NCBI GenBank assembly: GCA_043797545.1
Contig: JAZDPN010000051.1
Span: forward strand, 1 to 46,432
Length of the DNA stretch: 46,432 nt
Direction: 5' to 3'
From: Patescibacteria group bacterium
Lineage (GTDB): Bacteria; Patescibacteriota; Gracilibacteria; JAHISY01
Below are positions 10,492 through 35,544 of the stretch, one piece after another (the stretch's first letter is position 1; each line of letters starts with the position of its first letter). The notes beneath the pieces are model-generated. The model was given only the letters and a program-made list of their open reading frames with translations. It did no database searches and was not told the DNA's origin. Both the position numbers and the translations under genes were made by a program.

Positions 10492-10680
10492 TTTTTCGCT
10501 GGCGCGGTGTTGCTACTTTTTTGACAGCAAAAAAGTAGCACAAAAAACTGCCCGCCGATCTCAAAAATTCGGCGAGCTTGGTTGCTCGCGCACTAAAAAA
10601 TTCAATTGCTCACTTTGTTCGCTGAATTTTTCTGACGCGCGCTCGCAAGTCGCCGCCCCAATTTTTTCGAATGGCGGGGA
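10492..10680. repeat. structured dispersed repeat, copy 1 (~190 bp)
   Basis: Homologous to 35358-35544; 45-bp identical block 10512-10556; nested inverted repeats. Confidence 0.9.
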
Positions 10681-10714
10681 TGTGCGGCTCGCTTCGCTCG
10701 CCGCGCCGCTTTTT

Positions 10715-11977
10715 TTATTTCAACAATACTGAGAGTTCTTCCTCTCGTCCTTCAAACGGCCCGATCGCGGCGAGGCGGAATTTTCCCGGGACGAAGATTT
10801 GCTGCGCGAGTTTTTGGATTTGCTCCGCATTCACTGCGTCGATTTTCGCGAAAATTTCTTCGAGTGAATCCTGTTTCTTATAAAGCAAAAATTGTTTGCC
10901 GATGAGGTGCGCGTATTCTTCGCTGTCTTCGAGTCGCAAAGTCAGTTTGCCTTTCAAAAATTCCTGCGCACGTTTCAGCTCGTCCGCCCCGACTTTTTCC
11001 GCGGCGATTTTTTCATACTCCGCGCGAATCGCGCTGACCGCTTTTGGCAATCTTTTCAGATCGACTCCGGCACTCGTCGAAACCACGCCTGCATCGGTGT
11101 AGTCGTCGGTATTCGTCCGAATGTAATAGCACAGTCCCTGCGCCTCGCGCACATTTAGAAACATGCGCGAGCTCATATTTCCGCCGAGAATAATCGCCAA
11201 AATACGCTGCGCCCAGTGCTGCGGATCTTCCGCTGCGACGCCGCGCACACCGAGCACGAGATGACCTTGCTCAGTTTTTTTGTTCTGAATTTTGACCGGA
11301 CTTTGCGGCTCGAAATTTTCCAAAGCCTGCCAGTCGAAAGCTTTTTTGCCATTTTGAAATTGGAAAAATTTTTCGACTTTTCCGACGATTTCTTTGTGCT
11401 CGCATTTGCCCGCGACCGCGATGATGAGATTACCAGGCTGATAAAGCTCATTTTTGTAATTCACAAAATCGTCGCGCTGAAATTTCAAAATATTTTCGCG
11501 TGTGCCGATCTGATCCCAGCCCATCGGCTGGTCACCGAAAAGTAATCGCTCGAAATCCCAACCGACTTGGTACATCGGCGTGTCGAGATACATGTTGTAT
11601 TCTTCGAGAATTACACCGCGTTCTTTCTCGATTTCCTCGGCCGGAAATTTCGCATTGACCAGCATATCGCTCAAAACATCGAATGCCGTGTCCGCGTGAT
11701 TCGCGGCGACTTTCACGAAGTAGCCCGCATATTCTTTACCGGTGAAGGCATTGAATTCACCGCCGATCGAATCGATGGCCTCGCTGACCGCTTTGGTGTT
11801 TCTAAATTTCTCACCGCCCTTGAAGAACATATGCTCGAGAAAATGCGAAAGTCCGTTCCGTCCGCGCGTTTCGTAGCGTGAGCCCGCTCCGGCGAGGACG
11901 AGACAAGTAATCGCCTCCGTCCCGGGCAAAGTCTGAGTGACGATTTTGAGTCCGTTAGGCAGTTTAGTCAGTTCCAT
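10715..11977 (-). CDS. M16 family (pitrilysin-like) zinc peptidase
   Basis: Inverted Zn motif HFLEH, NAFT, SSRMFLNVRE..GL.Y. Confidence 0.93.
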   Translation of the reverse strand: MELTKLPNGLKIVTQTLPGTEAITCLVLAGAGSRYETRGRNGLSHFLEHMFFKGGEKFRNTKAVSEAIDSIGGEFNAFTGKEYAGYFVKVAANHADTAFDVLSDMLVNAKFPAEEIEKERGVILEEYNMYLDTPMYQVGWDFERLLFGDQPMGWDQIGTRENILKFQRDDFVNYKNELYQPGNLIIAVAGKCEHKEIVGKVEKFFQFQNGKKAFDWQALENFEPQSPVKIQNKKTEQGHLVLGVRGVAAEDPQHWAQRILAIILGGNMSSRMFLNVREAQGLCYYIRTNTDDYTDAGVVSTSAGVDLKRLPKAVSAIRAEYEKIAAEKVGADELKRAQEFLKGKLTLRLEDSEEYAHLIGKQFLLYKKQDSLEEIFAKIDAVNAEQIQKLAQQIFVPGKFRLAAIGPFEGREEELSVLLK

Positions 11978-11987
11978 TGCGAGAGAA

Positions 11988-13247
11988 TTATTTGGGCGAG
12001 TTTACCATCCCTGCCAGGAGAAAAAGACTGAGCGCCGTCGGCGCATCTTCGAGCGGATGTAAAAAGAACATTATTACTGTAATCCCGATCAAAGCGTAAA
12101 AAATTTCAGAGCCAGCCTTTTTCAAATCCAGAGCGAGACTGAGCAAAAAAACCAGGAACAAAATTCCGCCCAACCAACCCAGCTCAAGTGCGATTCCCAA
12201 GAAAGTATTTTCGGGAGTCAGAGCATGATTAAATCTTTGGGAGATGCCGCCAGTCTGACCCAGACCCAATCCCAGAGGATGCGCCCAAACGAGAGCAGCC
12301 GCTTGGATGCTTTTCGTGAAATGTTCTCCGGTCGAAGCGGCTCTACCGATGATTGCTCCCAAATTTTGATTAGAAAAAAGCAGAATCATGATTCCTGAGA
12401 TTGCGGCAAAAGCGCCAAAAGCAAGCCGTTTTTTTATTTTAGCAGGCAAATTTCTTCGCCACATTTTTCCCGCAAAGAGCAAAAAAATTACAGCTGCGCC
12501 GAGCCAGGCCGAACGCGAAAAAGTCCAGACCAAAACCAAAATTCCTCCTAAGATTTCGATCCCCAAAAAGTAGGGCCAGAAATTTTTCGTTTTGCGCTTA
12601 GCCCAAAATTCAGTCAGCGCGACTGGCAAAAGTAAAAGCAAAAACGCGCCGAGCTGATTCGGCCCGGCGAAAGTCGCCTGGGAGCGGATTTGGCCTGACT
12701 CGCCGACGAGATGATAGATCGGGAGATTGCCGCCCGGCTGCCAGCTCGAAACATTTTCCGAATAACCAAAATATTTTAAAAAGTCGGAAGGCAAAAGAAA
12801 TTTTTGTGCCAGGGCAAAAAGAATTACTAGACCGCCAGCTGACAGAAAGATTTTTTTCAGTCGTTCGATGTTCAGCTCGTCAAAATCAAAAAATTGCACG
12901 GCCAAAAAAGCAAGCAAAAATAAAGTTGCGGTTCGCAGGCCGAGCAGTTTTTGCGTCCAGATTCCACTGCCGAAAGTTGCGTAAAGAATTGCCGAGATTA
13001 CAAAAATCAAACCGAGCCAAAATGTCCGCGAGCGGGGAAATTTGCGGCTGGAAACCAATTTCACTAGAGCTAAGACTCCCAGAATTCCGACCAAGATTTC
13101 TTTCCAGGCTTGAATCAGGATCGTCCAAGCGTCAGTCCAAAAAAAACTTTTCAGCCAAGTAAAAAGAAAAGCATGAAAGGGGAGGAGTGCGATCAGGGCT
13201 ATCGAAATTGCGAAGGCCGCGCGGTCGAGTTTTTTGGAGAAACTCAT
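11988..13247 (-). CDS. O-antigen ligase (Wzy_C) family membrane protein
   Basis: Multi-TM; R..ATF.GPNQLG, TFSRSAWLG, HPLGLGLG, EN..L....ELG..G. Confidence 0.8.
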   Translation of the reverse strand: MSFSKKLDRAAFAISIALIALLPFHAFLFTWLKSFFWTDAWTILIQAWKEILVGILGVLALVKLVSSRKFPRSRTFWLGLIFVISAILYATFGSGIWTQKLLGLRTATLFLLAFLAVQFFDFDELNIERLKKIFLSAGGLVILFALAQKFLLPSDFLKYFGYSENVSSWQPGGNLPIYHLVGESGQIRSQATFAGPNQLGAFLLLLLPVALTEFWAKRKTKNFWPYFLGIEILGGILVLVWTFSRSAWLGAAVIFLLFAGKMWRRNLPAKIKKRLAFGAFAAISGIMILLFSNQNLGAIIGRAASTGEHFTKSIQAAALVWAHPLGLGLGQTGGISQRFNHALTPENTFLGIALELGWLGGILFLVFLLSLALDLKKAGSEIFYALIGITVIMFFLHPLEDAPTALSLFLLAGMVNSPK

Positions 13248-13280
13248 TGGAATTTTAAATTTCTAGTTTTAAATTAAAAA

Positions 13281-14336
13281 CTACTTTGCGGCATCCAAGA
13301 TGATTTTAGCAATCCGCTCGGCTGCGTCGCTCGGCGCTAGATTTTTGGCGGCTGCACCGATTTTGGCGAGTCGTGCTGAATCAGACAAAAGCCAGATCAC
13401 TAATTTGGCGAAGTCGTGCGGCTTGGCCTTTTCCTGGGGCATGACCATCGTAGCTCCGGCTTTTTCAAAAAATTTCGCGTTCTCGACTTGGTCACCGCGC
13501 GAGGATTCAGCCGGTAGAGGGATCAAGACGCTGGGTCGGCTGGCGGCTGCGATTTCGAAAAGGGCATTGGCGCCGGCCCGCGAAACGACCAGATCGGCTG
13601 CAGCCAAGACGTCCAAATATTCTTGGTCGAGATAATCAAAGAGTCTGACATTCTCGGGCAAATCCATTTTGGGCAGCTTGCCGGCGCCAGTCAGCCAGAC
13701 GACGTTTGTTTTGTGCGCTAGGGCAAAAACGCTGCGTTCAAGCAGAAGATTCAGAAAAACCGCTCCGGTCGAACCGCCCGCGATCAAGACAATCGGTAAG
13801 TCATTCCCAAAATCCAAAAATTCTCGCCCGTGTTCAGCCGACCCAATGGGCCGGACTGGGTTCCCAGTAATTTGGATTTTGTGGCCGGGGTGGGTAGTTG
13901 GGAAACTGAGACAAATTTTCTTGGCAAAGCGGGCCGTGAGCCGAGTCGCCAGCCCGGGACTGAGATCGGATTCGTGGATAATTAAAGGAATGCGCAAAAG
14001 TGCGGCTGCCAGAGCGACCGGGACGCTCACGAAGCCGCCTTTAGAAAAGACGACTTGCGGCTTGATTTTGATAAGCCGATGTAAGGCTTGGACTATCCCG
14101 ACCGGGACGCGCAGCGCGTCGACCGCATTTTGCCAATCGAAATAGCGCCTCAATTTTCCAGTTTGTATTGCATAAAATTCAATCCCCGTTTTTTCGGCTA
14201 GTTTACGCTCCAGCCCGTCTTGCGAACCGAGATAAAAAATCTGAGCATGACCAGCCAGCTTCTTGACCGCTGCGATGATCGCGAGATTGGGAATCACGTG
14301 CCCGCCCGTGCCGCCACCGGTAAAAACAATTTTCAT
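13281..14336 (-). CDS. murG: lipid II GlcNAc transferase MurG
   Basis: GGGTGGHV, SKGGFVS, HESD, TGNPVR, SRAGA, DQ..NA. Confidence 0.96.
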   Translation of the reverse strand: MKIVFTGGGTGGHVIPNLAIIAAVKKLAGHAQIFYLGSQDGLERKLAEKTGIEFYAIQTGKLRRYFDWQNAVDALRVPVGIVQALHRLIKIKPQVVFSKGGFVSVPVALAAALLRIPLIIHESDLSPGLATRLTARFAKKICLSFPTTHPGHKIQITGNPVRPIGSAEHGREFLDFGNDLPIVLIAGGSTGAVFLNLLLERSVFALAHKTNVVWLTGAGKLPKMDLPENVRLFDYLDQEYLDVLAAADLVVSRAGANALFEIAAASRPSVLIPLPAESSRGDQVENAKFFEKAGATMVMPQEKAKPHDFAKLVIWLLSDSARLAKIGAAAKNLAPSDAAERIAKIILDAAK

Positions 14337-14347
14337 AAGTTGACATT

Positions 14348-15070
14348 TTACAGAGAATCTTCTGTTTTGCGAATCGGTCTGGGCTGGTCACGCATTGCTT
14401 TTAATTCTTCAGCCGAAAATTTCTCGCCTTTGCGTGCATGCACCAGATCGTCGTCACGCTTACTAAAATCGCTCATACGCCGGCGCTGGTGGCTGGCCTT
14501 CTGAATATCCAAGATTTTGCGCGCAGTCATCTGCGGTGATTTTACGAAGTTCATCAGAAGCGGGATATCGCTTCCGGCAGTTTGGATTTCGAGCTGACCG
14601 ATATCAGAAAGAGTGCGCCAAAAACCATGCGTTTGACCGCCGACTTCCTGAATTCGGTCGAGATTAGTCTCGGCGATTTGCCAGTCAAAAATACTGGTTT
14701 GAGTGATATCGACTACGCGCTCATTGGTCACGACCACGACGGTGAACTCGCTTTTGATAAATTCAATTAGAGTTACCAGCCAGGCAAACAAAAAGTAGAA
14801 GACAGCAATTAAATTCAAAATCAGCTGAGATGCCAGTGGCAGGTTGATGTAAACAAAAAAAATAAAAATTATTCCAGGCAAGAAAACACCCAAGAGCAAG
14901 AACCACAAAAAAATCTTGGCGCGCTGCAGCCAGTGAGTGCGAATACAAATCTCGACTTCTTCGTTGGCGCGCTGTCCTGGAAAAAAATTCGTCCGTCGCG
15001 TGATATTGGTGTGCAATTTTGCGAGCTTTGCATCGCTGGCCGAAAGTGATTTTTCGCCTAAAAACATCAT
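14348..15070 (-). CDS. membrane protein with a bacterial PH domain
   Basis: Two TMs, then VVTNERVVDI.Q, IQEV, G.LEIQTAG. Confidence 0.75.
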   Translation of the reverse strand: MMFLGEKSLSASDAKLAKLHTNITRRTNFFPGQRANEEVEICIRTHWLQRAKIFLWFLLLGVFLPGIIFIFFVYINLPLASQLILNLIAVFYFLFAWLVTLIEFIKSEFTVVVVTNERVVDITQTSIFDWQIAETNLDRIQEVGGQTHGFWRTLSDIGQLEIQTAGSDIPLLMNFVKSPQMTARKILDIQKASHQRRRMSDFSKRDDDLVHARKGEKFSAEELKAMRDQPRPIRKTEDSL

Positions 15071-15155
15071 TTTAATTTTAACCGAATTCGGAGCTCGCTA
15101 ACTTGCCTTTATCTCCACTTTTTGTTAAAATATCGAAGAACAAAAACAAAACTGA

Positions 15156-16016
15156 ATGGATAAAAATACGCTGCAGTTGCCGTCCAAAAATGAAGTTTTT
15201 CGGCAGATTGTCGCCGAAAAGCCCGAAGACGCCGAGATGGATTTTCATAGTGCCTTGCATTTCATTGAAGGGCGCGAGGAAGACGAGCGTTTTGTCGAGG
15301 CGCGCCGTGCGATTCAAAAACAACTTGAAGAGAGCGAGGAGAGCGAAGAGCGTGGAACCTGCAATTACTATCTTTTGCGCCTGATGTTGCGCGAGCACTT
15401 GCTTTTTGAAAATAAGGACACGCGCGACGCCTACCAGAGGATGCGGGACAATTTTCTCGCGGCTGAACGCGAATACAAGAAGAATTTTTTCCAAATGAAG
15501 CGCGGTGAAGAGAAGGAAAATTCGCGCTCCCAGATCGAAAACTTTTACCGACTGGTCGATAGCTATTTCATCGTGCTCGAAAAGATTTATCAAAAAAAAG
15601 GTTTTCTCGGCGCGGGCGAGCGCGCTTATGAGGACAAAATGCATTTTCGCAAAAGTCTCGCTTATTTTTCGGGTCACCACTTCGCGCATCTCGGCCATCT
15701 TTTCCTCGACAAAACTTCCCGCTACGGTCACTCTCTAGGTCGCTGGGGGATGACTGTTTTGCTCTTTATCACTTTTTTCGCTGCGATCTACGCCTTGCTG
15801 GATTTCACTTCATCGACTTCAATGTTCGCGGACTATCCCGCACGGACCGGATTTTTCGATTATTTCTATTTCTCGGTCGTCACTTTCACTACGCTGGGCT
15901 ACGGTGATATCACCCCGATCACAGTCGCCGAAAAAATGGTGGTTGGCTGTGAGGTTTTGCTCGGTTTCACCATGTTGGGTATTTTCATCAATCTGATCAA
16001 GCGTCGTTTCAATTAA
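15156..16016 (+). CDS. two-TM potassium channel family protein with a large soluble N-terminal domain
   Basis: YFSVVTFTTLGYGDITP selectivity filter flanked by TMs. Confidence 0.85.
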   Translation: MDKNTLQLPSKNEVFRQIVAEKPEDAEMDFHSALHFIEGREEDERFVEARRAIQKQLEESEESEERGTCNYYLLRLMLREHLLFENKDTRDAYQRMRDNFLAAEREYKKNFFQMKRGEEKENSRSQIENFYRLVDSYFIVLEKIYQKKGFLGAGERAYEDKMHFRKSLAYFSGHHFAHLGHLFLDKTSRYGHSLGRWGMTVLLFITFFAAIYALLDFTSSTSMFADYPARTGFFDYFYFSVVTFTTLGYGDITPITVAEKMVVGCEVLLGFTMLGIFINLIKRRFN

Positions 16017-17082
16017 TAACCCGGCCTAAGCTCTCGGCCATTTGAGTCGGATCGTGGGCGGCGTGGAGCGCTTCTTCGGCTGAGATATCACCGCTTCTGA
16101 CGAATCGCAGCAAATTCTCGTCAAAAAGACGCATGCCGCTTTTGCCGTTGATTTGGATCTGGGAATAAATTTCCGAAATTTTGCGCTCGCGAATCGCATG
16201 TGCAATGCCGGAATTATTGAACATGATTTCTCTGACGCAGACCCGGCCCAGGCCGTCTTTGGTCGGAATGAGGCGTTGGCTCATCACGGCCGCGAGCGAA
16301 TGGCTAAGCTGGACGGCGATTTGTTGCTGCTGATTAGCCGGGAAAACATCGACAATTCGCTGAATCGCGCGCGGCGCATCGTCTGTGTGCAGAGTGGCCA
16401 AAACGAGATGCCCGGTCTCAGCCAGAGTGATCGCGGTCGCGATTGTCTCCAGATCGCGCATTTCGCCAATCACGATCACGTTTACGTCCTGGCGTACGGT
16501 GTGCTTGACCGCGCTGGCGAAGCTCTCGGCATCGATCCCGACTGCGCGCTGCGAAATCACGGCCTTTTTTCTTTTGAAAATAAACTCAATCGGATCTTCG
16601 ATCGTGATGATGCGCACTTTACGTTCGGCGTTAATAAAATCAATCAGGCTCGCGAGAGTAGTCGTCTTGCCGCTTCCATTTGGGCCGGTCACTAGGATCA
16701 AGCCTTCGTCGCGCAGGACGTATTCCAAAATTTCGGCTGGAATATCGATTTCATCGGGTCGCGGAATTTCAAAAGGAATCGCGCGAAAGGCGATGGCCGG
16801 ACCGTGCATTTCCTCATAAAACGCGACTCGGAAGCGGCTCAGATTTGGTCGCTCAATCGAGAAATCAAATTCTTTCTCGGCGGCTAGTTTTTTGAAACCC
16901 TCTTCGCCGATAATTTCGCGCGTGACTTTTTCGATTTCCTCGCGCTTGACTGGTTCAGCATCTGGTACCGGCCAGATCTGGCCATTTTTGGCACGCAGAA
17001 AGGGTGGCTCATCAGTCAGAATATGCAGATCGGAGCAGGCGTTTTCGATTTGCTGGATGAGCAGCTTCTCGAGGTCAAACAT
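16009..17082 (-). CDS. pilT: PilT/PilU family type IV pilus retraction ATPase
   Basis: SDLHI, GPNGSGKTTT, TIEDPIE, GEMRD, AETGHLVLATLHT. Confidence 0.92.
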   Translation of the reverse strand: MFDLEKLLIQQIENACSDLHILTDEPPFLRAKNGQIWPVPDAEPVKREEIEKVTREIIGEEGFKKLAAEKEFDFSIERPNLSRFRVAFYEEMHGPAIAFRAIPFEIPRPDEIDIPAEILEYVLRDEGLILVTGPNGSGKTTTLASLIDFINAERKVRIITIEDPIEFIFKRKKAVISQRAVGIDAESFASAVKHTVRQDVNVIVIGEMRDLETIATAITLAETGHLVLATLHTDDAPRAIQRIVDVFPANQQQQIAVQLSHSLAAVMSQRLIPTKDGLGRVCVREIMFNNSGIAHAIRERKISEIYSQIQINGKSGMRLFDENLLRFVRSGDISAEEALHAAHDPTQMAESLGRVIN

Positions 17083-17116
17083 TTGATTTTTTTAGATCGC
17101 GCCATTCTAGCACGTT

Positions 17117-18364
17117 TTAGCGCTTTTTCCAAGCGTTTTCCTGCCGACACAGGAGTCTACGATCGGCCGGGTTGCGCAGAATTTTTACCAAAGCTTGTTC
17201 AAGTCGGACTTGGTTTTGGCTGCCTTTGGCGAGAATCAAATCGCCCGGTCGAATTTCCTTTTTCAAAAACTCGCCGGCTTGCCTGGCCGTCTCAAAAAAC
17301 CTGGTTGGTTTTTTGGCGAGTTTCGCGGCTTGGACGAATTGCTCGGCTGCCCCAAAAACTCCGATCACAAGATCAGAGACTTTAGCGGCCTTGGCGCCCA
17401 GCTCGTGGTGAAACTTTAGCGAATTTGTTCCCAGCTCGTTCATCTGTCCGCCCAAAAAAATTTTCCTTTTGGCAGGCAAATTTTCCAAAGTTTCGAGCGC
17501 GGCCGCCAAGCTTTTGGGATTCGAATTGTAGGAGCCGTCCAAGATTTTCGAGCCTTTGATTCCCGCCAGGAGATTCAAGCGCCCGGGCGGTAAATGAAAA
17601 TCTTTCAGTGCGGAAATCGCTTTTTTCAAGCTAATGCCATTCGCCAGGCCGATTGCCACGGCGGCCAGGATTGAACCCAGATTTTGCCGCCCCAGGATGG
17701 GAATTTTTAGCTCGGCTTTTTCCTGACCCCAGGCAATCTGGGCCGAAAGTCCAGTCAGGTCTTCCCGGATTTTGCTTGCGCGCAGATTGGCGCTCTTGTC
17801 CAGCCCGAAGAAAATTTTCCGCGCATTTGTTTTCGTCTTTCGCGAAAACTCATCATCGGCGTTCAAAATTGCGACTCCGTTTTTGGGTAAATTTTCAATC
17901 AACTTTCTTTTTTCGCGAGCGATCGCTTCCAGGCTTGCGAATTGGCCGGGGCCGAGATGGACCGGTGCGACGTTCAAGAAGACGCCGATCTGCGGCCGCA
18001 CGATTTCCAGCAGTCGGCTCAAGTCACCCGGTCGGTCGGCCCCCAGCTCGAGGACGATTTTTGCCGCTTCCAATTTTTGCGTTCCGCGCCATTCCGCGCG
18101 CCAGAGAATTCCGAGCCATTTCAAAGGATTGGAAAAACCGGATTCTTCCTCAAGCAAAGTCAAAGGAACTCCAAATTCTGAATTAAAACTTTTCGCGTTG
18201 GCTAGGACTGTAAATCGGCTGGCCAAGATTTGCGCAGCCGCGTCTTTCGCCGTCGTTTTGCCGACCGAACCGGTGATTCCGACGATCGTCGATTTAGCCG
18301 AAACGCGTCGTCTCGCATGCAGACTCAGGAATTTAAGGACGAGATGGCGGGCGAGCTTCTTCAA
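17117..18364 (-). CDS. murF: MurF-type Mur ligase, lacking the usual N-terminal domain
   Basis: GITGSVGKTT, FNSEFGVPLT, LELGAD, LNADD, D.SYNSNP, G.M.ELG, KGS. Start uncertain (TTG 18364 or ORF start 18406). Confidence 0.85.
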   Translation of the reverse strand: MKKLARHLVLKFLSLHARRRVSAKSTIVGITGSVGKTTAKDAAAQILASRFTVLANAKSFNSEFGVPLTLLEEESGFSNPLKWLGILWRAEWRGTQKLEAAKIVLELGADRPGDLSRLLEIVRPQIGVFLNVAPVHLGPGQFASLEAIAREKRKLIENLPKNGVAILNADDEFSRKTKTNARKIFFGLDKSANLRASKIREDLTGLSAQIAWGQEKAELKIPILGRQNLGSILAAVAIGLANGISLKKAISALKDFHLPPGRLNLLAGIKGSKILDGSYNSNPKSLAAALETLENLPAKRKIFLGGQMNELGTNSLKFHHELGAKAAKVSDLVIGVFGAAEQFVQAAKLAKKPTRFFETARQAGEFLKKEIRPGDLILAKGSQNQVRLEQALVKILRNPADRRLLCRQENAWKKR

Positions 18365-18737: not shown

Positions 18738-18779
18738 AAATTTTTTAAGTAGCTGATTTTAACTGAGGGATTTTTGCCG

Positions 18780-28351: not shown

Positions 28352-28777
28352 AAGTTGAGTCTTTTTTGCGACGGCGGGGCGCGTGGCAATCCCGGACCAG
28401 CGGCGGCGGGCGCAGTTATTTTCGACGTCCAAAAAAATAAATTGGCCGCAGTCGCGAAATTTCTCGGTAACGCGACTAACAATCAGGCTGAATATGCCGC
28501 GGTTATTCTCGGTTTGCAAAAAGTGCTTGAATTTCAGCCGACCGAACTTGAGATCCTGCTTGATTCCAAATTACTAGTTGAGCAGATCGCGGGTCGTTGG
28601 AAAATCAAAGATTTGGAATTGAGAAAGCTAGCCGAAAAAGTCCACGTTGGCTTGGCTCAGATTTCCAAATGGCAGATTTCCCATATCCCGCGCGCCAAAA
28701 ACCACTTGGCAGACCAGCTAGTCAATCAAACCCTCGATCAGCGTGGTTTCCGCAAATCAACCTTTTTTCGTGATTGA
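28349..28777 (+). CDS. rnhA: ribonuclease HI family protein
   Basis: DGGARGNPG, TNNQAEY, DS.L, HIPR..N..AD. Confidence 0.92.
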   Translation: MKLSLFCDGGARGNPGPAAAGAVIFDVQKNKLAAVAKFLGNATNNQAEYAAVILGLQKVLEFQPTELEILLDSKLLVEQIAGRWKIKDLELRKLAEKVHVGLAQISKWQISHIPRAKNHLADQLVNQTLDQRGFRKSTFFRD

Positions 28778-29029
28778 TTTAGCCAGTTTCGCGACTTTGG
28801 ATTTGCGTCGCGCGGCTGTTTTTTTGTGTAGTAAATTGCGCTTGGCGGCTTTGTCAATCAATTGATAGGCCTTTTTGACAGCCTCGGAGATCTTTTCGCT
28901 AGCCTTGGATTTGGCCAATTTCTCGACCGACTTGATCGCAGAATGCATCTGTTCTTTCTGTAAACGGTTATGAGCCGTTTTTTTGCGGTCTTTCCGCATT
29001 TCCTTGATGGCTGATTTGAGAAGAGGCAT
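28757..29029 (-). CDS. rpsT: 30S ribosomal protein S20
   Basis: KSAIK.MR, IDKAAK...HK.TAARRKS. Confidence 0.95.
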   Translation of the reverse strand: MPLLKSAIKEMRKDRKKTAHNRLQKEQMHSAIKSVEKLAKSKASEKISEAVKKAYQLIDKAAKRNLLHKKTAARRKSKVAKLAKSITKKG

Positions 29030-29076
29030 TTTGAAATCTTAAAGTTGCGAGATTCTAATTCGAAAAAGCTGATTTT

Positions 29077-29964
29077 TCAAGCCCAAATGACCAGCTCGAT
29101 TTTTTCCTCAGCCAGTGCGCGCAGCATGCGCAAAGTATTGACTCGGCTCTCGTCTAGCCGGACAACCACGATTTTGGTTTCGTTGCGTCCGATTTTTTCG
29201 GCATCGCGCGGTAGTTCCAGAGTCTTGAGCTCGAGGTCGAGTTTGGCGCGCAACTTCGCGATATCGAAATCGATGCCGACGAGCTGGACGCCGCCGCCCT
29301 TTTTGGCTAGTTTTTTCAAAAAGTGCGCCTCATCCTTCTTCGGATTACGGAAGATCACGATGGCCTTGCTGCCCAAAATTTCTTCAGCTTCCCGCACCGA
29401 ATTGATCTGGCCGCCCAGTGCGGCAGCTAAAATCAACCAGGCGATCCCCAATAAAATTCCGCCGAAGGCCGCTGCCGAAAGCGTTTTTGCCAAGCTGCTG
29501 CGTGCGTCACTGACCGATTCGCCGTGCTGGCTCATGAAGAATTTGAATTTCGAGTCGGCGTCATACTTCTCGAGCTCTTCGGCCAAAATTTGTTTGACCG
29601 CAGCTGAGACCAGTTCGCCATTCGCTTGCAAAAAAGTCGCCTCGACCAAGAAATTTTGCTTGGCTTGGGTTTCGCCTCCCAGCGCGACCGGCGTGCCGGC
29701 CAGACCGCTGATGCGCTCTGCCAGAGTCGGGGAGCGCAGCCAGCCCGCGACTGAATTCGCAAAATCATCACTAGCCTTGGTGAAATCAAAACCTTGTTCG
29801 ACTGGGCTTTCGGCTTTGACTCCGACTGAAAAAAGCAGAGTCAGTTTATCGCGCGGCGGCTGTAAAAAGTAAACCGTCCCAGCCGCGATAGTCGCGGCGA
29901 GAGTGATTATCAGGATAACTAGCCAGCGCCGTCTCAGTAAATCGGCAAAATCATTGAAATCCAT
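29077..29964 (-). CDS. Wzz/polysaccharide co-polymerase-like membrane protein
   Basis: D...L.RRW..I first TM, second glycine-rich TM, I.S..EAE..LG. Confidence 0.65.
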   Translation of the reverse strand: MDFNDFADLLRRRWLVILIITLAATIAAGTVYFLQPPRDKLTLLFSVGVKAESPVEQGFDFTKASDDFANSVAGWLRSPTLAERISGLAGTPVALGGETQAKQNFLVEATFLQANGELVSAAVKQILAEELEKYDADSKFKFFMSQHGESVSDARSSLAKTLSAAAFGGILLGIAWLILAAALGGQINSVREAEEILGSKAIVIFRNPKKDEAHFLKKLAKKGGGVQLVGIDFDIAKLRAKLDLELKTLELPRDAEKIGRNETKIVVVRLDESRVNTLRMLRALAEEKIELVIWA

Positions 29965-30056
29965 GCAGAAAAATTAAAGCGGGGAAAGTCTATCGAAAAA
30001 GCTGCTAAATAAAAAGCGTCTTTCGTTCGGCTTTCCGAGGTGCTACAATCCCGGGC

Positions 30057-31022
30057 ATGCAGCTCCAAAAATTTTACGACCTTGCGGTCGAAAAGGGTCG
30101 CTCTGCCGACCCGCGCTCGAAGGCCGATATTGACCGATTTCTCGCGAATGAGAAAAAGGAGTTCGACAAGCTCGACAAAAAAGAGCGCGATTTCTTCGAT
30201 CCAGAGAGATTGAAAAATCCTTATGCGGATACGCGCATTCTTTTCGGCAGTCCTAAGACCGAGGTTAAGAAAATCGCAGTTGGCATCGATCTCGAAGCCG
30301 CCGAGCTTTTGCTGGTCCACGAATTAAATCGTGCCAAAGCCAAAATCGATCTCGCGCTTTCACATCATCCTGAGGGTAGTGCTTTGGCGCGGCTCGATGC
30401 AGTTATGAAAATTCAGGAGGAAATGTACGAGTCGGTCGGTGTGCCGATTAATGTGATTGAGAAATTGATGGACAAGGAAGTTGCACGAATTTTACGCGGC
30501 ATTCACCCGATCAATCACCAAAAAAATGTTGATGTTGCGCGTGCGCTTGGCATCCCATATGCCTGCACTCACACTGTGGCGGACAATCTCGCTTACCGTT
30601 TTGTCGAAAGATTAATGGCTAAAGAAAAGCCGCGCACGGTCGGCGACGTGATCGAAATTTTGCTGAGCCAACCGGAGTTCCGTGAATCGGCCAAACGAGC
30701 TGTGCCGCCGCTTGCTTTCGTCGGCAACAAAAATTCCAAGGCTGGCCGGGTCACTGTGACCGGGTTCACTGGCGGGACGAGCGGTTCGGCTGAGATTTAC
30801 GAATCGCTGAAGCACGCCGGTGTCGGGACGGAAATCGCGATGCACATGAAGCCGGAGGCCCAGAAAGAAGCTGAAAAACATCATATCAATGTCGTGATTG
30901 CGGGGCACATTGCTTCCGATTCGCTGGGTATGAATTTACTGCTTGATGAGGTTGAGAAGGCAGCCAAAGCAAAAATCGAGATTGTGCCGCTGGGCGGTTT
31001 CATGCGTTTCGCGCGTAAGTAG
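30057..31022 (+). CDS. NIF3/DUF34-like metal-binding protein
   Basis: NPYADTRI, GID, HHPEG, HT.ADN, GH.ASDSLG. Confidence 0.85.
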   Translation: MQLQKFYDLAVEKGRSADPRSKADIDRFLANEKKEFDKLDKKERDFFDPERLKNPYADTRILFGSPKTEVKKIAVGIDLEAAELLLVHELNRAKAKIDLALSHHPEGSALARLDAVMKIQEEMYESVGVPINVIEKLMDKEVARILRGIHPINHQKNVDVARALGIPYACTHTVADNLAYRFVERLMAKEKPRTVGDVIEILLSQPEFRESAKRAVPPLAFVGNKNSKAGRVTVTGFTGGTSGSAEIYESLKHAGVGTEIAMHMKPEAQKEAEKHHINVVIAGHIASDSLGMNLLLDEVEKAAKAKIEIVPLGGFMRFARK

Positions 31023-31045
31023 CTGCTTTGGTCTAGAATCAAGCT

Positions 31046-31432
31046 ATGATTTTCATCCAAATCCTGGCCGGTCTCGGTTTACTACTTTCGCTATACACTT
31101 TGTATCTGCACTGGCAATCGAAACGCGCGGAGAATTACAAAGCCGCTTGCGATTTGAGCGATCGGATGTCTTGTATGAAGAGCATTCGTAGCGCCGAGGG
31201 CAAGATGTTTGGGCTACCAAATGGAGTTTATGGAATTGGTTTTTACGCTGCGATTGGAGTCGCGACTTTGTCTGAGTTTCAAAATTACCTCTGGCCGCTG
31301 GCGATCATCGGAATGTTATTTTCGGTTTATTTCGGCTACCAGCTTTATTTCAAAGTTAAGACTTTTTGTGTGGTTTGCACTTCGATTTATTTAATCAATC
31401 TTTTGCTGTTGATTTTTGCCTGGAGGGCTTAA
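31046..31432 (+). CDS. vitamin K epoxide reductase family protein
   Basis: ACD....SC loop cysteines, CVVC motif, four TMs. Confidence 0.9.
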   Translation: MIFIQILAGLGLLLSLYTLYLHWQSKRAENYKAACDLSDRMSCMKSIRSAEGKMFGLPNGVYGIGFYAAIGVATLSEFQNYLWPLAIIGMLFSVYFGYQLYFKVKTFCVVCTSIYLINLLLLIFAWRA

Positions 31433-31590
31433 AGCACCAAATCTTGTTGTTGCGATTCGAGCGAGCTACCTTATCCTGAAAGGACTCTCTTTTTGCGCAA
31501 GTCGGAAAAATATTGCATTGTAAACGATGTTCATACTACAATTTCATCTAAATTTAATATTTGCAATTCAGTCTCTCTGAATCGCGAATC

Positions 31591-32610
31591 ATGCTCCACG
31601 ACCGTAGAGTCGGAAGGGAGGAATTTGTTTTCGGAGAAAGATTTTTGATTTTTGAGCAACAAAGTGAGCCCGCCGAGAAAGCTTGTTTGGAATGTCTTTC
31701 GCCGAAAGAATTAATTCAATTTGTTCGCACAGCGCTGATCGATTTGTTTAATTTTTTAAAAGAGCGACATGGAGAATCTTTAATGCAAAGAACGATCGGT
31801 GTTCCCGATGACCAAATTAAAATCCCACTTGCAAAGATTTTCGAACTGGACGCAAATGGTCAGAGAAGCGTTGGTATTTTTCAAGTGCTCAACAAGGCTT
31901 TGGAGGAAATTAATGACGAGAAAGAGCCTTCGTTGTCTTTTTGGCGTCAGCTGATCGAGCTCATGGCGCACACATACAGGAATCAAATTGGATTTGTTTT
32001 GCGCCAAAACGACAAAGCTGGACGGAAAGAAATTTGTCCCGAGTTGACTAAATTTCAAAAATGTTTCGATGAAGTGCTTGCTCAATTAATGCGAATTACT
32101 CCTCGCGAAGAAGAACAAAGCTGCACGATTTTGATTCCATTTTCCGTCCTCTCAGATTTGTGTGATGCAGCTGTCAAAAAATTAATCGCCGTGAGAGTTG
32201 CCGAGAAAAAAGAAGGTCAAAATTTAACAGCTGAAGAAATACAGAAAATCATCGGCGAAATAAAATTATCGCAGCAGCAAATTTTATTATTACAACGAGC
32301 TTTATTTTTTATCGCGGAAAGAAATAGGAGTATCCGAAAAGGAGCCGGCGAGCTCGCTGTTGACGACATTAGTTCCGTCGCAAGTCAAGATATTCAGTCC
32401 GATATCGATGCTGCCGCGAGATTACTTGCACTGAATATAGTTCAGCATTTAAAAATCGCTGGAGACAACGGTCATTGCGCGTTTGTTTTCCGGTCTGTGG
32501 GGGATCTTAAAATAATCGCTGAAGACGCTAAAACTGAAATTAATCCGCACGCGCGACCTCATCCGCAAACGCCGATTCATGTGCTTCGCGAATGTGGATT
32601 CGGGCAGTGA
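31591..32610 (+). CDS. hypothetical protein
   Basis: ~340-aa ORF with lower GC and no recognised motif; ATG 31591 or TTG 31561. Confidence 0.6.
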   Translation: MLHDRRVGREEFVFGERFLIFEQQSEPAEKACLECLSPKELIQFVRTALIDLFNFLKERHGESLMQRTIGVPDDQIKIPLAKIFELDANGQRSVGIFQVLNKALEEINDEKEPSLSFWRQLIELMAHTYRNQIGFVLRQNDKAGRKEICPELTKFQKCFDEVLAQLMRITPREEEQSCTILIPFSVLSDLCDAAVKKLIAVRVAEKKEGQNLTAEEIQKIIGEIKLSQQQILLLQRALFFIAERNRSIRKGAGELAVDDISSVASQDIQSDIDAAARLLALNIVQHLKIAGDNGHCAFVFRSVGDLKIIAEDAKTEINPHARPHPQTPIHVLRECGFGQ

Positions 32611-32611
32611 A

Positions 32612-33595
32612 TTACTTCTTCTCAAACATTTTGCGAATGCGAGCGCCGACGACCTCGATCGGATGTTTCGCTTCTGCTGCGCGCCACTTTTTCATTTTCT
32701 TCATTCCGCCGGCATACTCCGCCATCCAGACTTTCGCGAATTTTCCGCTCTCGACATCTTTCAGCGCAGCTTTCATCCGTTTCTTCGTCCCGGCGTCGAT
32801 GATTTTCGGACCGACGAGTCGACCGCCGAATTCCGCGGTATTCGACACGACGTCGTACATTCGCCCGATGCCGCCTTCGTAAATGAGGTCGACGATCAAT
32901 TTCAATTCGTGCAAACATTCGAAATACGCGAACTCGGGTGGGTAGCCCGCTTCGGTCAGAGTTTCGAATCCGGCTTTGATCAGTTCCGCTGTTCCGCCGC
33001 AAAGCACAGTTTGTTCGCCGAAAAGATCTTCATAAGTTTCCTCCGCGAAAGTCGCTTCGATCACGCCCGCTTTCGTGAAATACATCGCTTTCGCCATCGC
33101 GAGCGCAATTTTTTTAGCATCTTTCGTCGCATCTTGCTCGACCGAGATCAGCGCCGGCACGCCGAAGCCTTGCAAATAGCATTTGCGTTCTTCCGTGCCC
33201 GGACATTTCGGTGCGACCATGATCACGTTCACATTTTTCGGCGGGACGATTCGCTTGAAAACAATATTAAATCCGTGTGAAAAAGACAGCGTTTTCCCAG
33301 CCGTCACGAATTTCTCGATGTCTTTTTTGTAAACATCTTTTTGAATTTCGTCCGGAATCAAAATGTGAATAATGTCGGCTTTTTTCGCGGCGTCGGCGAT
33401 CGAAGCGACTTTCAAACCGTCTTGCTTCGCGAGCTTCGCGGACGGTCCGCCCGGGCGGACACCGACGATGACATTCACTTTCGAATCGTGGAGCATCCGA
33501 GCTTGCGCGCGACCCTGCGCGCCGTAGCCGATCACCGCGATTGTCTTATCTTTGAGGATACGCGTATCTGCGTCTTTTTCGTGGTAGATTTTCAT
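32612..33595 (-). CDS. ilvC: ketol-acid reductoisomerase
   Basis: GYGAQG, SHGFNI, DLFGEQ.VLCGG, AYFECLHE, SNTAE. Confidence 0.98.
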   Translation of the reverse strand: MKIYHEKDADTRILKDKTIAVIGYGAQGRAQARMLHDSKVNVIVGVRPGGPSAKLAKQDGLKVASIADAAKKADIIHILIPDEIQKDVYKKDIEKFVTAGKTLSFSHGFNIVFKRIVPPKNVNVIMVAPKCPGTEERKCYLQGFGVPALISVEQDATKDAKKIALAMAKAMYFTKAGVIEATFAEETYEDLFGEQTVLCGGTAELIKAGFETLTEAGYPPEFAYFECLHELKLIVDLIYEGGIGRMYDVVSNTAEFGGRLVGPKIIDAGTKKRMKAALKDVESGKFAKVWMAEYAGGMKKMKKWRAAEAKHPIEVVGARIRKMFEKK

Positions 33596-33618
33596 TGCAA
33601 AAAAATTAAAAATAAAAT

Positions 33619-34806
33619 TTATTGGGCAGGTGTAGTCGCTTCAGTTTTCGGCTCGGTTGCCGGATTTGCCGAGCTCTCAGCGGACTGGACCGGCTGCTCG
33701 GATCGTTCGATTTTGGTGGGAGTCGGAGTCACATTTGCATCAGTTTGAGCTTGGTCGCTTTCTGGGGTGGTAGTTTCTTTCGGACTGGTAGCCTCCTCGG
33801 ACGGGGCAGGCGTCAAGCTAGCCGGGTCAAATTCCTCGGCTGGCTCAGTCGGTGCTTCGACAGTCTGCGGCTGATTGATTTCTGAGAGCTGGGAATTAAT
33901 CATGATTTTCAGTTTGCCAGCTGGCAGGCTGGGCTGACCGAGATCAGCTAGATTCAAATCTAGACTAACTATTTCCCGATTCAGAAAACCATCAGACTTG
34001 CTGATCTCCAGCGTAATCTGGGGATTGAGTTTCGGTAAGATATTTTTCAAGATTTGCTGCAAGAGCTGGGTCTGAGCGGCCAGAGGGTTTTCCGCTCCTT
34101 CGGGTAATCCGGACGGAGTCAGGAATTTCGCCAATTCGGTCAAGAAAGCATCCGAACCGAGAAGCTCTTGGTTCAAACTAACCTCGACTGGCTGAACATC
34201 GCCGCCAAAAACCCAAGGCATTTTTTGGACGAGAAGGACATTATTGCCAGCCAAGAAATCTTTCAATTTTTCGCGCAAAGCAACCTGTTGTGTTTTTTGC
34301 TGTTCGAGCACTTCGGCAATCTTGGGATCGGAATCGGCTAATTTTTTGAAGGAAAGCGAAAACCATTTTTCTGCTGATCCATTGAGTTTATCGAATTGAG
34401 CTAGTGCTTCGGGGGAGAATCCAGTCAGAGTGATTTTATCGAGCCGACCGTAAAAAATTTCGTCCAAAATCTTCAACTCACCGCCTGCCGCGAGACTGGC
34501 CGGTTTACCTGCGAGTGTGCCTTGGCCCTGAATCTTGGCCAGATAATCCAGTGTCGGCAGATAGGCTGTCGCATTGGCGATCTGGCCAGAAAGGTCGAGC
34601 TGAAGTTGGCCATTGCCACTCTCGCCCAAATCAGCAATGACCTGGATCGTGCTGGCAAATTTAGCCGAATCAAGCGCAAGCGAATTGGCCAGAGCGGTAT
34701 TGACGAATTTTTGCGCGTCGCCCGGCCGATCGAACCAGACCTTGCCGAAAAAGGCTGCGCTGCCGAGGACAATTACCGCGATGAAGACGAGAAGGAACTT
34801 TTTCAT
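33619..34806 (-). CDS. membrane-anchored/secreted hypothetical protein
   Basis: N-terminal hydrophobic helix (MKKFLLVF), P/T/E-rich tail. Confidence 0.7.
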   Translation of the reverse strand: MKKFLLVFIAVIVLGSAAFFGKVWFDRPGDAQKFVNTALANSLALDSAKFASTIQVIADLGESGNGQLQLDLSGQIANATAYLPTLDYLAKIQGQGTLAGKPASLAAGGELKILDEIFYGRLDKITLTGFSPEALAQFDKLNGSAEKWFSLSFKKLADSDPKIAEVLEQQKTQQVALREKLKDFLAGNNVLLVQKMPWVFGGDVQPVEVSLNQELLGSDAFLTELAKFLTPSGLPEGAENPLAAQTQLLQQILKNILPKLNPQITLEISKSDGFLNREIVSLDLNLADLGQPSLPAGKLKIMINSQLSEINQPQTVEAPTEPAEEFDPASLTPAPSEEATSPKETTTPESDQAQTDANVTPTPTKIERSEQPVQSAESSANPATEPKTEATTPAQ

Positions 34807-34855
34807 CTCAAAAAGTATTAAAAACAAAAGCGGAGTGAGTTTAGCGCAATCCGGT

Positions 34856-35332
34856 TCAGCTCGAAAGCGCAGTCGCGCCAGCGCGTGAAATTTCCAGAAT
34901 CTTAAATTTACCGGCGGCCGTCAGGAACGCCTCGATTTTTTCAGGCGATTCGCAGATTTCTAAGACCCAAAAAGTTCCGTTTTTGCGGGGGACACGCGCC
35001 TTGAATTTTTTCACCAGAGCAGAGATTTGGGCTGAATTTTTCGCGCTAACCGCGATTTTGACCAAAGCGAGATCGCGGATCACGGCATCGATAGAGTCCA
35101 GTTTTTTGATCTGGATAACTTCGACGATCTTGTACATTTGGCGGACGACTTGGTCGATATCGGTGCCTTCCTCGACCACGATCGTCATGCGGCTCAGACC
35201 TTTCTTCTCAGAATGGCCGACCGTGAGACTCTCGATATTGAATCTTCTGCGGCGAAAAAGACTGGCGATGCGATTCAAAACACCCGTTTTGTTTTCGACG
35301 AGAGCGACGAGTGTGCGCGGTTTGGGAGACAT
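34856..35332 (-). CDS. ilvN: acetolactate synthase small (regulatory) subunit
   Basis: VENKTGVLNRI..LF.RR.FNIESLTVG, SRMTI, RDLALVK; ATG 35332 preferred. Confidence 0.93.
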   Translation of the reverse strand: MSPKPRTLVALVENKTGVLNRIASLFRRRRFNIESLTVGHSEKKGLSRMTIVVEEGTDIDQVVRQMYKIVEVIQIKKLDSIDAVIRDLALVKIAVSAKNSAQISALVKKFKARVPRKNGTFWVLEICESPEKIEAFLTAAGKFKILEISRAGATALSS

Positions 35333-35357
35333 GACAAAAAGCATTTTAACAAATAAT

Positions 35358-35544
35358 TTTTTCGCTGGCGCGCGCCGCTACTTTTTTGACAGCAAAAAAG
35401 TAGCACAAAAAACTGCCCGCCTACGCGAAAATTCCGCGAACTTGGTCGTTCGCGCGCGAAAAAATCCGATGTTCACTGCGTTCACCGGATTTTTTTTGAC
35501 GCGCGCTCACGAGTCGTCGCCCAAATTTTCGCTGATGGCGGGGA
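35358..35544. repeat. structured dispersed repeat, copy 2
   Basis: Homologous to 10492-10680, same orientation; identical block 35377-35421. Confidence 0.9.

Follow-up and report, generated by a model that had tools for sequence, protein, structure and literature searches.

The structured element that occurs twice in the window (the whole 46,432-nt stretch of DNA analysed) probably represents a family of hairpin-forming repeats interspersed between genes and specific to one lineage, the Peribacteraceae-type CPR bacteria; it is similar to REPIN/BIME, ERIC and SPRITE elements and likely to act as a bidirectional terminator. The family is new, and the kind of element is already known from other bacteria. 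The initial annotation counted two copies; a covariance-model search of the genome revealed instead a 15-copy family with three arm subfamilies.

Whole-length alignment located the two copies at 10492-10680 and 35358-35544, both on the + strand, as originally described, with 83% identity over positions 1-189 (blastn). The covariance model R1 delimited them at 10490..10687 (copy 1, 207.2 bits) and 35356..35551 (copy 2, 192.7 bits), in each case over model positions 1-197, and both are full-length members of subfamily A. The 45-nt identical block reported earlier corresponds to the invariant columns 73-117 of alignment A1 (GCTAC...CTGCCCGCC) and contains the small hairpin 1, GCTACTTTTTT-GACAGC-AAAAAAGTAGC, located at 10512..10539 in copy 1 and, from sequence and fold, at 35377..35404 in copy 2. 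In copy 1, it is followed by an A-rich linker (ACAAAAAACT, 10540..10549), a U-tract when read on the opposite strand, and by a long hairpin (10550..10679, MFE fold) with the clamp GCCCGCC/GGCGGGG and an inner conserved stem CTAAAAAATTC...GAATTTTTCTGACGC. The corresponding linker of copy 2 lies at 35405..35413 (sequence and fold) and its long hairpin, closed by CCCGCC/GGCGGG and then followed by ACTATTTTAT, was assigned to 35414..35544 by the MFE fold; all these features are on the + strand. The fold first proposed was recovered in each copy, with CCCGCC/GGCGGG closing a long hairpin in addition to the small one. Folding free energies were -70.8 kcal/mol for copy 1 and -78.0 kcal/mol for copy 2 (z-scores of -4.1 and -4.9), and none of 200 shuffles folded as well as either copy. 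The two arm changes from copy 1 to copy 2 that had suggested structural conservation are also present, namely the double substitutions converting AAAAAATTCA/TGAATTTTT into AAAAAATCCG/CGGATTTTTT and the replacement of CAAAAATT/AATTTTTT by GAAAATT/AATTTTC.

Copy 1 lies between two convergent genes: an acetolactate synthase large subunit-like gene (TPP enzyme; 8744..10468, +), whose stop is 24 nt before the element, and a gene for an M16 peptidase (10715..11977, -). The T-run that is missing directly after the clamp of copy 1 is provided by an accessory 3′ hairpin, read from the sequence as GCGGCTCGCTTCGCTCGCCGCG(CCGC) then T7 (10684..10712, +). Three close matches to this accessory motif were found in the genome, all directly 3′ of copies (C12a, C25, and C37b), and a fourth, looser match does not adjoin any copy. 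Copy 2 is located 13 nt from the start codon of the acetolactate synthase small subunit gene (34856..35344, -). On its other side, the upstream gene in the direction of transcription encodes DnaK/Hsp70 (35805..37721, -; ORF call, neighbours checked with Pfam), with a predicted 47-aa ORF without Pfam match between them (35545-35688, -).

Throughout the genome (995,533 bp; 79 contigs, 93.6% complete), the covariance model identified 15 full or near-full forward-strand copies scoring at least 58 bits. The remaining 19 of its 34 matches were opposite-strand echoes of the same 15 loci, and degenerate fragments of the repeat are present besides. The unit, ~190-230 nt long, consists of a near-invariant small hairpin (CTTTTTTG-N4-CAAAAAAG), an A-rich linker, a long GC-clamped hairpin spanning ~130 nt with arms of ~60 nt, and usually a T-run. 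All 14 genomic occurrences of the hairpin-1 core motif are inside copies, and the ends of the copies are merely A/T-rich (AATAATTTTT... and ...ACTTTTTAT).

The structure of the repeat is kept by compensatory change, and what had been proposed from two copies was upheld in larger alignments. Among 12 copies, 90.8% of the cells pair, compared with 46-55% when the 3′ partners are slid, and 15 of the 52 pairs show double changes, compared with 2-6 in the slid controls; none of 500 shuffles reached the observed value. In an alignment of 40 copies from nine genomes, which was fitted to the covariance model, 89.5% of the cells pair (44-54% slid) and 44 of the 52 pairs show double changes (309 cells), compared with 16-24 pairs (31-75 cells) in the slid controls; here too, none of 500 shuffles did as well. 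Pairing in helix 1 reaches 98.7% in these 40 copies. Between subfamilies, entire arms differ while complementarity is retained: the arms of the long hairpin are free to change provided that they remain complementary. A conserved ORF was ruled out by these compensatory changes together with the 20-24-nt indels between orthologues.

Such strong covariation could also reflect a structured RNA family, either 3′-UTR-derived or independently transcribed, in which hairpin 1 and an inner CUAAAAA/UUUUUUUGACGC stem would serve as binding sites for a protein or another RNA and copy number would be the result of gene-family expansion. We consider this unlikely, even though a class-wide comparison shows conservation of hairpin 1 and of the inner motif alongside varying stems, and orthologous copies at three sites are more conserved (96-97% identity) than the flanking genes (85-96%). 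Some copies carry optional internal modules of 22-24 nt with TTCG loops (UUCG in RNA), present in both arms and always on the same strand. This strand constancy favors the RNA reading and may point to a function tied to one strand, possibly at the RNA level, that a simple repeat leaves unexplained; the observation counts against our preferred interpretation.

Several observations argue against an RNA family. No promoter-like site was detected inside either window copy (hairpin 1 and the 3′ arm do contain TTGACA/TTGACG words). At the tandem sites, the element is sense to its neighbours in two cases and antisense in three, and its copy number is 0 to ~11 in congeners versus 15 here. Pairing between the arms is Watson-Crick almost throughout, and G-U does not exceed A-C on the element strand (48 versus 57 among model pairs; 8 versus 16 isolated mismatches, p = 0.15). 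This strand test leans, if anything, to the opposite strand. Moreover, in 33 of 38 copies it is the opposite strand that folds better. An Rfam search of the window returned only three tRNAs above gathering thresholds, the best sub-threshold match on copy 1 scoring 17.3 bits for a threshold of 43. The element thus matches no Rfam family; the initial annotation had likewise been unable to assign it to a named one. That annotation had left the choice between an ncRNA and a non-autonomous mobile element. An interspersed non-autonomous repeat fits much better, and a free-standing ncRNA gene is disfavored by the lack of an internal promoter-like site, the occurrence in either orientation, the variable copy number among congeners, and the many copies that take up the entire gap between two stop codons.

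The copies are situated at the 3′ ends of genes, with a preference for convergent pairs. Eight of the 13 determinable sites are convergent, five are tandem and none is divergent (neighbours checked with Pfam), for a convergent background of 20.5% based on greedy ORF calls (P ~0.0015). The element is found in either orientation relative to neighbouring genes, several copies fill the intergenic gap to within 1-6 nt of stop codons, and the family is found at the ends of housekeeping genes, among them those of EF-Tu, MurB, ArgRS, DnaK, and acetolactate synthase. Weighing against the preferred reading, the distant family of genome G018 shows only two convergent sites out of eight and one divergent site, as assigned by a heuristic.

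In intrinsic terminators, a U-tract comes directly after a GC-rich stem, and the bidirectional type adds an upstream A-tract; the usual hairpin has a stem of about 5-14 bp and a loop of 3-8 nt. With its A-tract, GC-clamped hairpin and T-tract between convergent genes, the repeat resembles ordinary bidirectional terminators. Every aligned copy has an A-run ahead of its clamp, 12 of 14 have a T-run behind it, and a terminator scan detected terminator-like T-runs on both strands at the two ends of copy 2. Two features speak against this role: the 3′ T-run is missing in two of the 14 copies, and the ~60-nt arms are far longer than those of a usual terminator, the scan recognizing merely local sub-stems within the long hairpin. 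The repeat further differs from ordinary terminators in that it recurs as a family, its internal motifs are conserved and it has an extra hairpin upstream. Judged from its sequence layout, it would act as a bidirectional intrinsic terminator and/or as a 3′-end stabilizer of the flanking genes. Such a function would account for the tolerance of the element and even its conservation in situ.

The enrichment between convergent genes, the near-perfect long palindrome and the absence of strand asymmetry among its mismatches are also compatible with a DNA-level architectural or protein-binding site. Such a cruciform or bent DNA, recognized by a nucleoid protein or a topoisomerase, would be kept at the ends of convergent units for supercoiling, a role of the kind proposed for BIMEs. 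A/T tracts recur at spacings of ~12, 13, 21, 32, 32, and 35 nt, although such a spacing follows from the palindrome itself. We regard this possibility as quite improbable given that the TTCG modules are strand-specific, that no evidence points to a binding protein, and that congeners with zero copies manage without the element.

Comparison with relatives showed that the family is both inherited and renewed. Among the eight congeners searched with the covariance model, G001 carries ~11 copies, G005 ~10, G006 ~5, G008 one, and G003 a single weak match, while no match was obtained in G002, G004, and G007. Class-wide, 37 of 151 genomes were matched at E ≤ 0.001. Six sites hold a copy in both the present genome (G000) and G001; the three orthologous sites with the element identities given above are cases of such conservation. 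The copy-2 site is devoid of the element in G001, G005, G007, and G008. Conversely, G006 has a copy where G000 has a near-spacerless gene junction, measuring 4 nt by greedy ORF calls and 14 nt between BLAST flanks. The same site can be occupied by different subfamilies in different species, and presence/absence polymorphism is seen between relatives. Vertical inheritance thus prevails between close species, and gain, loss or subfamily swap at the same sites over longer distances. Copies were found at contig ends, as is usual for repeats, and two DNA contig runs returned only short contigs of relatives, breaking at the element. One joint in them, from 10560 to 10684, was discounted because its shorter side covers only 23 letters. 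For the interval 9000-12000, the run listing contained no RNA run.

The location of copy 1 after ilvB and of copy 2 before ilvN, 25 kb apart and with the two genes on opposite strands, raised the possibility of an inversion between the copies. This scenario was rejected since G001 and G008 share the separated ilvB/ilvN arrangement without an element at the copy-2 site.

MITEs of the Correia, RUP and ERIC type have terminal inverted repeats (TIRs) matching those of a parent insertion sequence and show a target-site duplication when filled and empty sites are compared, and PATEs derived from IS200/IS605 have the left- and right-end hairpins of these elements, with TnpA and/or TnpB encoded in the genome. 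The presence/absence polymorphism described above is shared with MITEs, and the fragmentation of the assembly means that a parent element could be missing from it. The repeat might then be a MITE or PATE, non-autonomous and derived from a conventional insertion sequence that is extinct or missing from the assembly. This origin appears very unlikely. No TIR was found in the repeat, nor any target-site duplication (TSD), the compared sites differing by more than the element with no clean empty site or junction; these absences weigh against our preferred reading as well. No parent insertion sequence was found in the genome, where TnpB (PF07282) has no match (at 93.6% completeness) and the Y1 genes carry ends other than those of the repeat. 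Phage and plasmid collections contain no similar sequence, and most copies are old and orthologous.

The genome encodes seven RAYT-like Y1 (HUH) loci, whose genes score as RAYT rather than IS200. None of them is flanked by the repeat: their flanks show only chance matches to it of 13-17 nt and one of 29 nt at 86% (E 0.002-0.034). Two of these loci have their own, different REPs, and palindromes other than the repeat accompany the C60 and C52 genes. Nor do RAYT scores follow copy number, G001 and G005 being copy-rich without any RAYT above the cut-off and G007 and G008 having several RAYTs for 0-1 copies of the repeat. Both observations count against a RAYT-mediated component of the preferred interpretation.

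REP, REPIN and BIME elements are described as extragenic palindromes forming long hairpins with compensatory changes on both sides, located downstream of genes, between unidirectional and convergent ORFs (PMC3116915; PMC3733652), and the short REP palindrome as having at one end a tag, GTAG or CGTC, that is left unpaired (PMC3733652). In a REPIN, two inverted REPs form a hairpin with compensatory changes, and the cognate RAYT gene has the same REP or REPIN at its flanks. The repeat is likewise an extragenic palindrome with a long, compensated hairpin, and its distribution (8 convergent, 5 tandem, 0 divergent sites) agrees with a position downstream of genes. It also resembles them in its vertical inheritance and persistence at orthologous sites, in forming mosaics with other palindromic units, and in the presence of RAYT-like genes in the same genome. 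In contrast, the repeat has no GTAG or CGTC tag; in hairpin 1, some copies have GTAG within the stem, and others have GTGG or GTAA instead, with the partner altered accordingly. Neither the long-hairpin arms nor hairpin 1 occur as singlets, the small hairpin is an extra, separately conserved part, no RAYT gene is flanked by the repeat, and there are ~15 copies instead of hundreds, of a unit about twice the length of a REPIN.

ERIC and IRU (RU-1) are elements of enterobacteria (PMC3184786; PMC2759123). The repeat shares with ERIC an intergenic palindrome with a long hairpin, found in either orientation and in variable copy number. ERIC is an imperfect palindrome of ~127 bp that forms a long hairpin in intergenic regions, in either orientation; its copy number varies widely between related species, longer variants have insertions at fixed internal sites, and it has been described with terminal inverted repeats and TA duplications. 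The repeat differs by its unrelated sequence, by showing neither terminal inverted repeats nor TA duplications, and by its separate small hairpin, which is not an ERIC feature. SPRITE, the Streptococcus pneumoniae Rho-independent terminator-like element, is likewise interspersed and of small size (PMC3049150). It also has in common with the present family the shape of an intrinsic terminator and a location after genes. SPRITE is about half the size of the repeat unit; it belongs to another phylum, its sequence is unrelated and it lacks the two-hairpin layout.

For the preferred reading, an intergenic repeat family with a terminator function, spread may occur through a single-strand hairpin intermediate recognized in trans, probably at hairpin 1; the most plausible candidate enzyme is one of the seven RAYT-like Y1 (HUH) proteins. 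Alternatively, copies could spread by recombination or gene conversion between one another. The two-hairpin module, with its invariant U6/A6 hairpin, A-tract, covarying long hairpin and strand-specific UUCG-capped expansions, is recognizable throughout an entire class of CPR bacteria. A bolder proposal, which we advance only tentatively and hold to be rather doubtful, is that this module serves as nucleic-acid partner to a conserved CPR protein, for which one of the expanded RAYT-like HUH enzymes is the most attractive candidate. It would then constitute a REPIN-RAYT-like, vertically inherited replicator, independently arisen in CPR and co-opted to supply and renew bidirectional terminators in 1-Mb genomes.

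Few known genomes are as reduced as those of CPR/Patescibacteria, which are commonly portrayed as containing few repeats and little mobile DNA. In the literature searched, we found no description of interspersed palindromic repeats in these genomes, and the available portions of the Peribacteria genome paper (PMC4736985) do not mention palindromes, transposases, intergenic regions or terminators. The covariance model can be used to mask or annotate the repeat in CPR MAGs, and the family bears on where MAG assemblies break, and why. It also bears on the nucleic-acid partners of the many RAYT-like genes of this lineage, and it offers a concrete model for the building and renewal of transcription ends in reduced genomes.

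The repeats at 10492-10680 and 35358-35544 (copies 1 and 2), both on the forward strand, could be aligned over their full length with 83% identity (blastn) and have an identical 45-nt stretch in common, which includes the hairpin GCTACTTTTTT-GACAGC-AAAAAAGTAGC. Each copy folded into two hairpins, first this small one and then a long one with CCCGCC/GGCGGG as its closing stem, with free energies of -70.8 and -78.0 kcal/mol and z-scores of -4.1 and -4.9, respectively; none of 200 shuffles folded as well. Alignment and folds confirmed the two structured copies with a common block and hairpin described in the initial annotation, and both sets of double substitutions quoted there were found in the sequences. 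Its count of two copies holds for the window, which contains no other, but not for the genome. In G000, the Patescibacteria genome under study (995,533 bp in 79 contigs, 93.6% complete), in which the window is contig C12, additional copies were recovered by blastn, nhmmer and a covariance model alike. This model, R1, built from 12 copies and comprising 52 base pairs, gave 34 matches at E <= 0.01: 15 are forward-strand copies (58.6-207 bits), and the remaining 19 are opposite-strand echoes on the same 15 loci, as a near-palindrome would be expected to give. Two copies adjoin contig ends (contigs C41 and C60), and degenerate fragments occur in C60 (1096-1155), C29 (55791-55865) and C33. In the middle of the degenerate copies at C29:55678-55866, C60:1096-1290 and C33:5244-5328, GTAG-type palindromes (GTAGGG...CCCTAC) fill the space, as if REPs inserted into the element or replaced parts of it.

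The element, which the initial annotation could not assign to a named family, has no matching family in Rfam: only three tRNAs pass gathering thresholds in the window, and the best sub-threshold match to copy 1 scores 17.3 bits where the threshold is 43. Phage and plasmid collections gave no match to the element.

From its 5′ end, the unit consists of an A/T-rich lead-in with CGCTGGCGC, hairpin 1 with the near-invariant core CTTTTTTG-N4-CAAAAAAG, the A-rich linker CAAAAAAC, a long hairpin with the clamp GCCCG(C/A)C / G(G/T)CGGG(G) and, usually, ACT(N)TTTT. All 14 genomic occurrences of the hairpin-1 core lie within copies, and the outer pairs of this hairpin covary (GCTAC/GTAGC, TCCAC/GTGGA, TTAC/GTAA). 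The long hairpin contains a conserved inner stem, CTAAAAAATYCRA ... TYGRATTTTTTT(G)ACGC, and the arms from clamp to inner stem exist in at least three unrelated versions, with arm complementarity kept in all. These versions define subfamilies A (copies 1 and 2 and, named by contig, C37a, C26, C3, C50, C7, C17 and C39), B (C25, C67, C41 and C37b) and C (C63 and C60). Optional modules of 20-24 nt at fixed internal spots consist of two mini-hairpins, one of them TTCG-looped; the presence of the TTCG modules varies between orthologous copies of two species, and their strand relative to the element is always the same. Every aligned copy has the A-run, and 12 of 14 have the T-run. An accessory hairpin, GCGCGGCTCGCT..GCTCGCCGCGC, has three close matches in the genome, each directly 3′ of a copy (window 10684-10712, C25:1676-1697 and C37:4253-4275), and it carries the T7 run of copy 1. 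Centre-to-centre spacings of A or T runs, in copy 1 and others, are about 12, 13, 21, 32, 32 and 35 nt, which may reflect helical phasing or be a mere consequence of the palindrome.

The initial claim that structure is conserved by compensatory change was tested by sliding pairing partners, and pairing and double changes lay above these controls in two alignments. With 12 copies (MAFFT), standard pairs occupy 90.8% of cells versus 46-55% with partners slid by 1-3 columns, and double changes affect 15 of 52 pairs (33 cells) versus 2-6 slid pairs. With 40 forward copies from nine genomes, aligned to R1 and hence biased towards the model, 89.5% of cells pair versus 44-54%, and double changes affect 44 of 52 pairs (309 cells) versus 16-24 pairs (31-75 cells). 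None of 500 shuffles reached the observed values in either alignment, counts that are not readable as probabilities because the sequences are related. The arms are nearly perfect Watson-Crick duplexes, with 54 isolated mismatches in 38 copies. On the element strand, model pairs include 48 G-U versus 57 A-C, isolated mismatches are 8 G-U versus 16 A-C (p = 0.15), and the opposite strand is the more stably folded in 33 of the 38 copies. The hairpin is maintained, and it may be so in RNA from one strand or the other or in single-stranded DNA. The conserved pairing is what a structured RNA family would display; we consider such a family unlikely. A DNA-architectural site appears more improbable again.

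The element is repeated, structurally constrained and located at gene 3′ ends. Neighbors were checked with Pfam for 13 copies, the remaining two being those at contig ends, and the flanking genes are convergent at eight sites, tandem at five and divergent at none. The convergent pairs are acetolactate synthase large subunit/M16 peptidase (copy 1), TatD/TPM phosphatase, TP-methylase/115-aa ORF followed by a class-I tRNA ligase, MurB/shikimate kinase, Mur ligase/isopropylmalate dehydrogenase, EF-Tu/RibD, Exo_endo_phos nuclease/ArgRS and histidine phosphatase/NAD synthase. Among all G000 gene junctions (greedy ORF calls), 20.5% are convergent and 19.6% divergent, giving a probability of about 0.0015 for at least 8 of 13 convergent sites (0.0096 against gaps of at least 150 nt). 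At several convergent sites the element occupies the gap up to 1-6 nt from the stop codons. Of the five tandem copies, two are sense to the genes and three antisense; the tandem set includes copy 2, which lies after dnaK and 13 nt ahead of the gene for the acetolactate synthase small subunit. A heuristic survey of 14 more sites in genomes from this family, some orthologous to G000 sites and thus non-independent, gave eight convergent, six tandem and no divergent, and the same heuristic at eight sites of the distant genome G018 gave two, five and one.

Two further observations concern the surroundings of the window copies. The acetolactate synthase large (8744-10468, +) and small (34856-35344, -) subunit genes are separated by 25 kb and lie on opposite strands, and each adjoins a copy; the elements did not cause this split, since the congeners G001 and G008 show the same arrangement. 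Between dnaK and copy 2 lies a 47-aa hydrophobic ORF (35545-35688, -) with no Pfam match.

The layout of A-run, GC-clamped hairpin and T-run would suit a bidirectional intrinsic terminator, a reading consistent with the preference for sites between convergent genes. The stem, however, is unusually long and hairpin 1 is additional, features that do not fit an ordinary terminator. We favor, as the probable reading, an interspersed palindromic repeat with a terminator-like role.

Matches were found by blastn in six of the eight other genomes of the genus. R1 detected about 11 forward copies in G001, about 10 in G005, about 5 in G006, one in G008, one weak match in G003 and none in G002, G004 and G007; G009, of another genus, has one copy. 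The covariance-model search proposed initially for the genome and CPR MAGs was also run on the class (E <= 0.001), where 37 of 151 genomes match, G000 included. G018 (11 matches), G079, G082, G073, G085, G013 and G106 combine a very different sequence with the same layout of T-run/A-run hairpin, A-rich linker and long hairpin, and the inner stem CTAAAAA...TTTTTTNACGC occurs in five of eight distant copies inspected (G018, G079, G082, G073 and locus L113). A strict hairpin 1 and linker pattern matched Peribacteraceae and Gracilibacteria MAGs, as well as a single MAG each of Paceibacterota and Uhrbacteria.

The element persists for long periods at orthologous sites, although in the course of time it is also gained, lost and swapped. 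Six sites are occupied in both G000 and G001 (copy 1, C3, C50, C7, C25 and C67); the copy-1 site is occupied in G006 too, the C25 site holds the sole G008 copy, and G005 has copies at the C50 and C37b sites. At three G000/G001 sites, element identity over aligned positions is 96-97% versus 85-96% for the 800-nt flanks, so that conservation of the element equals or exceeds that of the adjoining genes. Identity is lower at C50 (84%) and C7 (76%), owing to exchange of hairpin 1 or of internal modules. A tree of 40 copies groups the G000 and G001 orthologues in pairs, and more distant species carry another subfamily at a given site; the G006 copy at the copy-1 site has subfamily-B arms and then the 3′ end of a subfamily-A copy. 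The copy-2 site lacks the element in G001, G005, G007 and G008, and its spacer on the dnaK side varies in every relative examined (106 nt with a simple terminator in G005, an extra 309-aa gene in G001). A G006 copy with other palindromes lies at a junction where the two G000 genes nearly adjoin (a spacer of 4 nt according to greedy ORF calls and of 14 nt as measured between BLAST flanks), and the site of a G001 copy is, in G000, a 45-nt spacer retaining a hairpin-1-like relic. These comparisons among relatives revealed no clean junction, target-site duplication or terminal inverted repeat. Gain and loss would be expected of a MITE of a missing IS, but the element lacks the terminal inverted repeats of classical MITEs and showed no target-site duplication at the sites compared, and we hold this origin to be very unlikely.

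For the palindromic repeat, spread could proceed through a single-strand hairpin recognized by a protein, as proposed for REPINs in PMC3116915; the long stem and hairpin 1 would be expected of such a repeat. TnpB had no match in G000. A model of RAYT, the REP-associated Y1 (HUH) tyrosine transposase, identified seven loci there: C59:13558-14136 (98.6 bits) and C60:20092-20595 (91.4 bits), both above the curated cut-off as ORFs, C52:6192-6746, C22:1127-1660, C30:10432-10920, C77:4145-4600 and a broken one at C51:3191-3361. The HxH motif and conserved Tyr are kept in the three proteins aligned. Arrays of a 23-nt palindrome particular to the C60 gene, GGTTCAAGTTTGTAACTTGAACC, border it on both sides, and the six genome copies of this palindrome all lie at this locus (L026, C60:19500-21100), a classical REPtron; the C52 gene lies among GTAGGG...CCCTAC palindromes, of which the genome has four. 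No flank of the seven loci resembles the element. RAYT-like genes occur in 11 of 12 genomes of the family (8 above the cut-off), with no relation to element copy number. Granted the palindromic-repeat reading, a RAYT-like mobilizer is conceivable though rather doubtful, a link that we infer from general hairpin-repeat biology and not from a finding.

Among these genes, the C59 Y1 copy begins 20 nt beyond a 1208-aa ORF and overlaps with the ORF that follows, and therefore looks operon-embedded rather than mobile; in relatives, the Y1 domain sometimes lies within open frames of 950-1311 aa. Downstream of the C22 and C30 Y1-like genes are other G-rich hairpin repeats, CCCCCC...GGGGGG units with a GATTTT end.

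In the way it works, the element resembles REPIN/BIME, ERIC and SPRITE repeats. It has no GTAG/CGTC tag and flanks no RAYT gene, and by these criteria falls outside the REPINs. The literature searched yielded no account of such repeats in CPR bacteria, and we rate the element as a new family of an already known kind of bacterial repeat.
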